IMG/VR virus record: IMGVR_UViG_2579778916_000005
DNA: 8,299 nucleotides
Reading direction: 5' to 3' (one strand)
Source of the DNA: a virus
Taxonomy: Duplodnaviria > Heunggongvirae > Uroviricota > Caudoviricetes
A program made the translations under genes and the position numbers. The notes beneath the pieces were generated by a model that ran no database searches, was not told the DNA's origin, and saw nothing but the letters and a program-made list of their open reading frames with translations. This document shows, one piece after another, positions 235 to 819 of this stretch. How positions within the stretch are numbered: position 1 is the stretch's first letter; each line of letters starts with the position of its first letter.

Positions 235-389
235 TAAGGTTAAATTAATTATAAAAAAATATATTATAATTCCATCCTCGCATTAAATTTTAACCTTTAA
301 TCTCCACACGGAACAAGTTGCATAGGTGACTATATTAGGAAAACTTATAACCACCAAAACATTTGCTTTGCAAACAAAAACAGTGACCA

Positions 390-418
390 TTGACTCTAAG
401 AAAATTCCGATCTATTGT
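390..418 (+). promoter_or_regulatory. Candidate sigma70-type promoter (TTGACT, 17-bp spacer, TATTGT)
   Basis: A -35-like TTGACT at 390..395 and a -10-like TATTGT at 413..418 with a 17-bp spacer, about 35 bp upstream of the small ORF at 453. The -10 matches consensus at only 4 of 6 positions and the tract is AT-rich, so chance matches are likely. Confidence 0.2.
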
Positions 419-452
419 TAGGGTCATCAAAGTTACTTAACAGTATTCCGAA

Positions 453-554
453 ATGAAAATACAAAGCAAGCTAATTGTCTTATTAAACATTATCATTGCA
501 TTTATATTATTTGAGCTTTTAGCTCAAAAATTTGGTTTGAGTACATTATTTTAA
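453..554 (+). CDS. Hypothetical 33-aa hydrophobic small protein (speculative; below the ORF-track size cutoff)
   Basis: ATG at 453 to TAA at 552..554 translates to MKIQSKLIVLLNIIIAFILFELLAQKFGLSTLF, a single hydrophobic helix-like segment with a basic N-terminus. There is no clear Shine-Dalgarno sequence. It lies between the candidate promoter (390..418) and the plus-strand terminator (704..736). AT-rich DNA produces such ORFs by chance. Confidence 0.2.
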   Translation: MKIQSKLIVLLNIIIAFILFELLAQKFGLSTLF

Positions 555-703
555 AGCAAGATAAACAATATCGGGCACTCTAGTTTTTATAATTAACAAT
601 TAAACGTCCATAAAATGTTATTTACTTTTGTTCGCTATTGTCATATCTTAATATAGTGGCTTACGCCACTCTACTTTCATCACATTTTGTACGTTTATGT
701 ACT

Positions 704-736
704 CGCCATGAAGCTCTTTCATGGCGATTTTTTATT
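704..736 (+). terminator. Rho-independent terminator-like hairpin plus T-tract (plus-strand orientation)
   Basis: Stem CGCCATGAA (704..712) pairs with TTCATGGCG (718..726) around a 5-nt loop, followed by ATTTTTTATT (727..736). On the minus strand the hairpin is preceded by an A-run and not followed by a T-run, so the orientation is plus: it would stop transcription converging on tfa. Confidence 0.55.
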
Positions 737-819
737 CTTAATCCAAGAACATACTCCCTACCTATAGCAAAATCACTTTTTGAACAAAAGAATAACGTAT
801 TTAGGTAATCATTACGAAT

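Follow-up and report, generated by a model that had tools for sequence, protein, structure and literature searches.

A probable YncL-like small-protein gene in an AT-rich module beside tfa in lambda-like prophages of Escherichia coli

The DNA analyzed here is an 8,299-nucleotide stretch from a virus of the class Caudoviricetes (IMG/VR virus record IMGVR_UViG_2579778916_000005), and we refer to this whole stretch as the window. Pfam matches and the RefSeq annotation of an identical locus indicated that the window belongs to a lambda-like prophage and covers its tail end, where the minus strand reads J, lom, stf, and tfa. In the AT-rich DNA downstream of tfa, a preliminary description made from the sequence alone had pointed to a plus-strand unit consisting of a promoter-like site at 390 to 418, a 33-codon open reading frame (ORF) at 453 to 554, and a terminator. 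All of these elements were found at those positions. As described below, comparisons with related copies indicated that the ORF is likely to be a real gene for a YncL-like peptide, carried in a phage moron. The parts of the unit are as follows (dN/dS, ratio of nonsynonymous to synonymous substitution rates; UTR, untranslated region).

390 to 418, plus strand: candidate σ70-type promoter, TTGACT-17 nt-TATTGT, predicted start near 425 (consensus scan, 9 of 12 positions)
453 to 554, plus strand: small-peptide gene, 33 amino acids, ATG start, stop codon included (dN/dS, NCBIfam YncL match, intact copies)
555 to 654, plus strand: variable spacer of the 3' UTR (most diverged stretch, indels)
655 to 670, plus strand: conserved 6-bp hairpin, AGUGGC-UUAC-GCCACU (minimum free energy, centroid, and alifold structures)
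671 to 702, plus strand: conserved, mostly single-stranded tract, CUACUUUCAUCACAUUUU, with a weak 4-bp hairpin (low variation)
703 to 736, plus strand: intrinsic terminator, 10- to 11-bp stem and U run (terminator scan and fold)

The ORF encodes the peptide MKIQSKLIVLLNIIIAFILFELLAQKFGLSTLF. Because an in-frame stop codon is located four codons upstream of the ATG and no alternative start lies between the two, the start at 453 is unambiguous. The predicted leader is only about 27 nt long. In our scan, the terminator stem (703 to 727) contained 11 pairs, five of them G-C, followed by TTTTTTATTC, and the terminator was predicted to be effective on the plus strand only. No terminator-like site was found on the minus strand anywhere in positions 1 to 1500.

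The preliminary description had cautioned that AT-rich DNA yields such ORFs by chance, and the first 1.5 kb of the window did contain 17 ORFs of at least 25 amino acids; on its own, the 33-codon ORF was unremarkable. Terminator-like sites were weakly enriched (3 versus 1.1 ± 1.1 in shuffled sequences). Since single-sequence signals of this kind were near chance, the case for the gene rests on the comparison with related copies.

Conservation of the small gene

Pattern scans of viral and metagenome contigs, taken together with the genomic matches, yielded 78 complete copies of the ORF. The copies fell into three lineages, which we call W (the window type), Q (contigs L035 and L036), and R (about 80% identical and located in a decayed Rac-like remnant beside trkG). 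The preliminary description had named conservation of the ORF and its frame beforehand as one of the points on which a gene would stand or fall. The ATG, the 33 codons, and the stop codon were kept in all three lineages, and 77 of the 78 complete copies had an intact ATG followed by 33 codons; the exception (L088) carried ATA in place of ATG. E21K and A24D were seen as natural variants of the peptide.

Lineages W and R differed at 19 of the 99 ORF positions. By the Nei-Gojobori method, these differences corresponded to 12 synonymous and 7 nonsynonymous steps (pS = 0.61, pN = 0.088), and the dN/dS values in the ORF frame were 0.07 for W versus R, 0.05 for W versus Q, and 0.06 for R versus Q. 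The other two frames, both of which contained stop codons, gave values of 0.35 to 7. When the W-R substitutions were reassigned at random among positions carrying the same base, the frame stayed open with five or fewer changed codons in 0 of 20,000 trials. In addition, 11 of the 19 changes were at third codon positions (P about 0.01), and the replacements were mostly conservative (V to I, I to F, and F to L). Indels between the lineages occurred directly after the stop codon and in the spacer, and none occurred inside the ORF. Frame-specific dN/dS values, the permutation result, and an ORF free of indels are together the signature of a translated gene. Judged by these substitution patterns, the ORF is a protein-coding gene under purifying selection, and we infer that it is transcribed and translated. 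The alternative raised in the preliminary description, a purely non-coding RNA, was rejected for the ORF.

The R allele was the most diverged, and an intact copy of it was found in the decayed Rac-like remnant near trkG in E. coli FCI51 (L005:2745-4117), where the neighboring genes were annotated as pseudogenes (a tfa fragment, a "GREB1-related" gene, and ynaK). The survival of the allele in this decayed remnant is consistent with retention for a benefit to the host.

The comparison between lineages W and R was also informative for the candidate promoter. The -35 block CATTGACTCTAAGA (388 to 401) was invariant, with substitutions and indels just upstream of it and substitutions in the leader downstream. 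The sole change in the -10 element was TATTGT to TATCGT. A TC at positions -14 and -13 of the candidate promoter would suit σS, as a hint in the sequence.

Several other candidate elements were rejected. A leaderless start served by a -10 element CAGTAT (441 to 446) was a poor match and was not conserved. A hairpin inside the ORF (510 to 528), scored as terminator-like in the scan, was broken in lineages R and Q, and other small ORFs at approximately 283 to 430 were frameshifted by indels in lineage R.

Matches to the 591-bp interval at 230 to 820 were present in 831 of 5,426 complete E. coli genomes (about 15%, or roughly one in seven), at 941 places in total, with up to four per genome, all of them chromosomal. 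The prophage in the genome with the locus identical to ours was at the ydfJ (Qin) site according to RefSeq, and the small gene was found in the prophage at this site as well as in other prophages. The module was also present in three sequenced lambdoid phages, namely, mEp332, PhiR70_1, and ev099, in which the far side of the module consisted of an AraC-family gene, IS2 fragments, and int. The ORF was unannotated in these phage records, and nothing was annotated over it among the approximately 190 RefSeq E. coli records listed.

Relationship of the peptide to YncL

The only family match for the peptide was NCBIfam YncL (NF000537, "stress response membrane protein YncL"), which was obtained with the W allele (25.0 bits, E = 1.3e-5) and the R allele (23.5 bits, E = 3.7e-5) and covered residues 1 to 28 of the 30-position model. 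In a BLASTP comparison with YncL of E. coli K-12 (MNVSSRTVVLINFFAAVGLFTLISMRFGWFI), 11 of 28 positions were identical and 18 of 28 were positive in an ungapped alignment running from Met1 to Met1. None of eight scrambled or reversed versions of the peptide matched the YncL model. A hidden Markov model (HMM) that we built from 15 YncL orthologues gave the peptide 21.6 bits, compared to a maximum of 14.9 bits for 20,000 shuffled versions, and the Smith-Waterman score of the peptide against YncL was 60, compared to a shuffle maximum of 48 (n = 20,000).

No match to the peptide was found in Pfam or PADLOC, and PHROGs gave nothing meaningful. A phmmer search of 1.84 billion representative proteins returned only the peptide itself and one frameshifted variant; in a database this large, so short a query could not have reached YncL. 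A tblastn search of phage records yielded nothing, not even the identical copies, a result that we ascribe to low-complexity filtering.

A codon-level pattern of the positions shared by the two proteins retrieved yncL orthologues in Escherichia, Shigella, Citrobacter, and Intestinirhabdus. Among the residues that were invariant in YncL of Escherichia, Citrobacter, and Intestinirhabdus, the peptide kept M1, S5, K/R6, L10, N12, A16, L19, F20, L22, K/R26, F27, and G28, and since the orthologues had been fetched with the pattern of shared positions, the retrieval itself partly accounts for the invariance there. In viral, genome, and metagenome collections, scans with degenerate codon patterns recovered yncL orthologues and the same three phage alleles. 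These scans revealed no wider phage family; they added one doubtful relative and two chance matches inside long ORFs. The doubtful relative is a small ORF, MKKAITLILMNIISALFLFFLIIQNFGFWGHE, on an unrelated contig that is phage-like and has a gene for an ERF recombinase in its vicinity (L055:3440-3540; IMGVR_UViG_2225789004_000194). It shares N-I-I-x-A...L-F-x-L-[LI]-x-Q-x-F-G with the window peptide and scored 12.6 bits on our local YncL HMM; either distant relationship or chance may account for the resemblance.

The preliminary description had viewed the peptide as essentially one transmembrane-like helix, and the predictions agreed with this view. Specifically, AlphaFold2 placed a helix at residues 2 to 26 (predicted local distance difference test score, 86.5), and the best 19-residue Kyte-Doolittle window scored 2.54 at residues 7 to 25, compared to 2.15 at the same place in YncL. 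The predicted architecture is a short basic N terminus (MKIQSK, with K2 and K6) followed by a single transmembrane helix and, toward the C terminus, the motif KFG.

YncL (b4598 in E. coli) and the phage peptide are thus alike in size (31 versus 33 amino acids), in having one transmembrane helix with a basic residue before it, and at positions S5, K/R6, V9, L10, N12, A16, L19, F20, L22, K/R26, F27, and G28. Each gene stands alone as a monocistronic unit with a hairpin at its end. The two differ in that yncL occupies a chromosomal position between patD and ortT, whereas the peptide gene is prophage borne; in the 3' UTR, which is about 180 nt long in the phage unit, whereas the yncL hairpin is close behind the stop codon; and in the C-terminal tail, which is LSTLF in the phage peptide and WFI in YncL. 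In E. coli K-12 (L054:12100-12563), yncL was found divergently oriented beside ortT, the gene for the orphan toxin OrtT, and the hicAB toxin-antitoxin pair was located about 7.5 kb away.

We conclude from the sequence comparisons that the peptide is probably not a YncL orthologue but a paralogue that has diverged. Since it falls short of a YncL equivalog in score, synteny, and ribosome-binding site and agrees with YncL in homology and architecture, we use the label "YncL-like, prophage-encoded."

In published work, YncL is a 31-amino-acid inner-membrane protein whose levels are raised by heat shock and in minimal medium (PMC12542507), and it is cleaved in vivo by RseP (PMC10470546). When produced from a plasmid, YncL, like YohP, caused sublethal depolarization, psp induction, less protein synthesis, nucleoid condensation, and sensitization to magainin-2; overproduced YncL lowered viability, with depolarization that was partial and an effect that was sublethal (PMC12542507). 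YohP, a stress-induced small membrane protein of 27 amino acids, belongs to the same class and had the same reported phenotype (PMC12542507), making it a functional analogue; no sequence relationship of the phage peptide to YohP was detected, YncL being the only NCBIfam match. The Salmonella yncL gene (STM14_1932) was first listed as a small RNA (sRNA), STnc1110, and is σS dependent (PMC5437024). In a study using RNA interaction by ligation and sequencing (RIL-seq), yncL mRNA was paired with the sRNA KilS, which comes from kilR, a gene of the Rac prophage (PMC8175672). Our literature search found no description of the phage peptide or of the 3' RNA sequence of the unit, and no phage-borne relative of YncL was found described in the papers searched that mention YncL.

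The 3' RNA and the surrounding module

The two parts of the 3' UTR behaved differently. In the spacer (555 to 654), lineages W and R were about 35% diverged and were separated by indels (a 5-nt deletion and a 4-nt insertion), with no sign of constraint. The 3' block at 655 to 736 was the least variable non-coding part of the unit, with approximately 5 of 80 positions differing between W and R, compared to approximately 19% in the ORF. The fold of 640 to 738 had a free energy of -27.1 kcal/mol, corresponding to a z score of -6.5 relative to shuffled sequences. In the hairpin at 655 to 670, the variants C660U and A668G kept G·U pairs that are possible only in plus-strand RNA, and one variant broke a pair. 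A few variants broke pairs in the block as a whole, and no double compensatory changes were observed in its structure. The tract at 671 to 702 had one common variant, C683U, across 41 distinct sequences, and its weak 4-bp hairpin was unsupported by variants. In lineage R and in some of lineage Q, the terminator had a weaker U run (CUUUCUU).

No Rfam family matched positions 380 to 740 at E values up to 1. Pairing of the 671 to 702 tract with the unit's own 5' region (P = 0.3) or with yncL mRNA was not significant relative to shuffled sequences. The 3' block never occurred without the ORF (827 genomes, compared to 828 to 831). A non-functional tfa remnant at 100 to 350 was also nearly identical between W and R, so recombination is possible, and the conservation of the 3' block may reflect either function or recent recombination.

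Three further RNA features were considered and set aside. An internal promoter for the 3' block, TTGTTC-18-TATAGT (628 to 657), had TTCTTC or ATCTTC as its -35 element in most copies and CATAGT as its -10 element in lineage R. In the case of a Hok-like fold-back of the 3' end onto the 5' end, the minimum free energy structure of the whole RNA paired the AUG with 683 to 689, but this pairing was absent from the centroid structure and its duplex energy was at the level of shuffled sequences. The third was an sRNA of the type represented by AgvB and AsxR, the enterohemorrhagic E. coli prophage sRNAs that are found at moron sites of lambdoid prophages and end in terminators (Tree et al. 2014, PMC4104026). 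The 3' block has a similar layout. However, AgvB and AsxR lie downstream of PR'/Q and not beside tfa, and the conserved RNA block of the present unit is physically linked to a coding gene; there was no Rfam match in 380 to 740, the presence of these sRNAs in Rfam not having been checked.

The setting of the unit is given by the following features.

1401 to 4799, minus strand: stf (Pfam; RefSeq annotation of an identical locus)
820 to 1401, minus strand: tfa (tail fiber assembly), the late gene on which the small gene converges (Pfam Caudo_TAP, E = 9.6e-44; tfaQ in RefSeq)
232 to 818, plus strand: AT-rich module of 587 bp downstream of tfa, which carries the small gene (G+C profile and bracketing direct repeats)
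132 to 231, minus strand: left direct repeat, a remnant of the 3' end of a tfa gene (81 to 85% identical to 819 to 918, at a spacing of 687)

The G+C content was 23 to 37% across positions 201 to 800, compared to 45 to 58% in the tail genes tfa and stf. The right direct repeat consists of the last 100 nt of tfa (819 to 918). The left repeat is a dead remnant whose translation (...IEWPAVPVG) resembles the tfa C terminus, and in the E. coli FCI51 locus it carries the annotation of a tail fiber assembly pseudogene (partial). These direct repeats suggest that recombination between the tfa 3' ends of different phages brought in or exchanged the module. Among the copies compared, a core of about 290 to 745 recurred next to three different sequences on the left and two on the right, and in the Rac-like remnant the core adjoined a pseudogene other than tfa. 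The same core in different flanks is the behavior of a moron, a concept introduced by Juhala et al. 2000, as cited in PMC4104026.

On this sequence evidence, positions 232 to 818 appear to be a mobile, modular unit of about 0.45 to 0.6 kb, that is, a phage moron. The unit has its own terminator, a deviant base composition, and varied flanking contexts. As for a promoter of its own, there was a 9-of-12 consensus match at the right distance with an invariant -35 block, but such matches were equally frequent in shuffled sequence. The unit thus resembles lambda-type morons and lysogenic-conversion genes such as lom and bor in being extra DNA with its own terminator, a candidate promoter, and a deviant base composition, in its placement at the tail-fiber end of the late region, like lom, and in its varied flanks. 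It differs from them in encoding a 33-amino-acid peptide in place of an outer-membrane protein or lipoprotein and in its orientation against the late operon.

Other observations concerned the rest of the window. A match to Rfam IS009 (RF02111) above the gathering score (212 bits) was found at 860 to 1058 on the minus strand, and a weak match was found at 172 to 247 on the same strand. Since both matches are on the coding strand and lie within the coding sequence of tfa or the tfa remnant, the family here coincides with protein-coding tfa and not with a separate RNA gene. Sub-threshold matches to Rfam isrG (22 to 31 bits, compared to a gathering score of 100) at 3836 to 4215 on the plus strand fall antisense to the Ala/Ser-rich repetitive part of stf and are most likely artifacts of composition or repeats. 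Positions 4700 to 8299 contain a tandem duplication of about 1,860 bp (83 to 90% identity) whose unit is the J C terminus plus lom. In copy 1, J is open to the end of the window and has its stop at 7394, followed by lom at 6724 to 7323. Copy 2 has a 5'-truncated C-terminal fragment of J (ORF at 5531 to 6529, with Phage_Tail_Tip and Ig_GpJ_C domains), followed by lom at 4864 to 5463; upstream of this J fragment, many stop codons interrupt the frame. The greatest difference between the receptor-binding ends of the two J copies is in the final 130 residues or so. In L001, a genome whose tfa region is identical, J-lom is present only once. The duplication may represent a reserve cassette for receptor binding or a scar left by recombination.

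Alternative explanations and proposed role

Our preferred explanation, a real YncL-like gene in a moron, is likely, and several observations weigh against it. Promoter-like sites were at the chance level for AT-rich DNA (4 observed versus 4.5 ± 2.1 in shuffled sequences). There was no Shine-Dalgarno motif before the ATG (...ACAGTATTCCGAAATG), as the preliminary description had stated in reporting no clear ribosome-binding site, whereas yncL has a strong one, AAAGGUGG. The dN/dS values rest on approximately 25 substitutions in three lineages, and position 21 switched from E to K between lineages. The 25-bit score of the peptide was below the 35-bit equivalog cutoff of NCBIfam (K-12 YncL, 68.6 bits), and the YncL-invariant residues N2, V3, S4, T7, V8, F14, A15, V17, I23, S24, W29, and F30 were not kept. 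The exact peptide occurred only twice among approximately 15 billion predicted proteins, unnamed and without an NCBI accession. In addition, the YncL phenotype comes from plasmid overexpression, which makes the functional analogy weak.

At the opposite extreme, the ORF would be a product of chance in an AT-rich spacer, the terminator would simply insulate the prophage end, and nothing would be translated. This explanation accommodates a promoter match at the chance level, a missing ribosome-binding site, the lack of annotation in the RefSeq and phage records listed, and the ease with which AT-rich DNA gives hydrophobic ORFs. However, a frame-specific dN/dS of about 0.06, the permutation test, the three-base periodicity of the substitutions, and the absence of indels from the ORF all contradict it, as does a similarity to YncL that depends on residue order and exceeded that of 20,000 shuffled peptides. 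We consider it hardly credible. A more specific alternative is that the peptide is a type I toxin, either an orphan or paired with an undetected RNA antitoxin, that kills or arrests the cell when derepressed and serves prophage maintenance or abortive infection. Like HokB, TisB, LdrD, ZorO, and DinQ, the peptide is small and hydrophobic with a single helix, as is typical of such toxins, and its homologue YncL depolarizes the membrane and lowers viability when overproduced (PMC12542507). The missing Shine-Dalgarno motif and the long structured 3' UTR may recall the translationally restrained mRNAs of toxins, and yncL itself adjoins the orphan toxin gene ortT. An antitoxin RNA was not detected, however: the only promoter-like site on the minus strand near the unit (644 to 615) had a non-conserved -35 element, and terminator-like sites on that strand were lacking throughout 1 to 1500. 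The inverted repeat 316 to 340/646 to 670, the sole candidate for a link between the 5' and 3' ends, had a 9-nt AT-rich core and uncompensated variants and was attributed to chance. Furthermore, no match to a Hok, Ldr, TisB, Ibs, ShoB, Zor, or DinQ type of toxin was found in Pfam or NCBIfam and none was found in PADLOC, the predicted leader is short (about 27 nt), and the reported effect of YncL is sublethal. We therefore regard a type I toxin as very unlikely. The preliminary description had suggested either a type I toxin or a small membrane regulator; the regulator was favored by the homology to YncL, and the toxin gained no support, neither an antitoxin-like antisense unit nor a toxin family match having been found.

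The alternative that leaves the gene in place is a bifunctional RNA, in which the 3' end (655 to 736) would be released or separately transcribed as an Hfq-type, 3'-UTR-derived sRNA of about 80 nt acting on host or phage mRNAs. A hairpin, a single-stranded region, a terminator, and a U run make up the layout of many enterobacterial sRNAs, and here the terminator hairpin and U run are preceded by a potential single-stranded seed. The low variation of the block relative to the ORF and spacer, its fold (z = -6.5), and the G·U-preserving plus-strand variants C660U and A668G point in the same direction. On the other side stand the missing Rfam match, the lack of double compensatory changes, internal promoters (TTGTTC-18-TATAGT and TTTACT-17-TATCTT) that are weak and not conserved, and the weakened U run in lineages R and Q. 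Moreover, blocks of near identity also arise by recent recombination, the block was never separate from the ORF, and its pairing with its own 5' end or with yncL was at the level of shuffled sequences. A separate sRNA function is therefore unlikely, although it is a possibility that we take seriously.

Under the preferred explanation of a YncL-like gene in a moron, the unit would work as follows. In a lysogen, the promoter at 390 to 418 would start transcription near 425 and produce a monocistronic RNA of about 310 nt ending at the strong terminator at 703 to 736. Translation would begin independently of a Shine-Dalgarno motif, at an AUG-AAA start that is A/U rich and unstructured. If the analogy with YncL holds, the peptide would insert into the inner membrane of the lysogen and may modulate membrane energetics or envelope stress. 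The phage copy would then provide the lysogen with an extra, differently regulated dose of YncL-type activity. During lytic growth, antiterminated late transcripts passing through tfa would run antisense across the unit and damp its expression; such read-through would be expected because there is no minus-strand terminator after tfa. Any specific physiological effect of the phage peptide, argued from analogy, is considerably less probable than the gene itself. A bolder proposal, which we regard as improbable, is that lambda-like phages captured and diversified the host stress peptide YncL as a two-in-one moron: the peptide would tune the membrane potential of the lysogen (for dormancy or tolerance or for the exclusion or abortion of superinfecting phages), the 3' end would be a trans-acting sRNA, and lytic antisense read-through would switch the unit off.

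Small membrane proteins are systematically missed by annotation, and in RefSeq E. coli alone, an annotation model for this peptide would label approximately 940 loci. The phenotype of YncL, namely, sublethal depolarization, psp induction, and "metabolic silencing," is a recent finding, and the phage peptide is a natural sequence variant for finding which YncL residues matter. If the phage copy acts like YncL, it would give prophages a cheap means to alter the stress physiology of the host, its sensitivity to antibiotics or antimicrobial peptides, or its susceptibility to phages.

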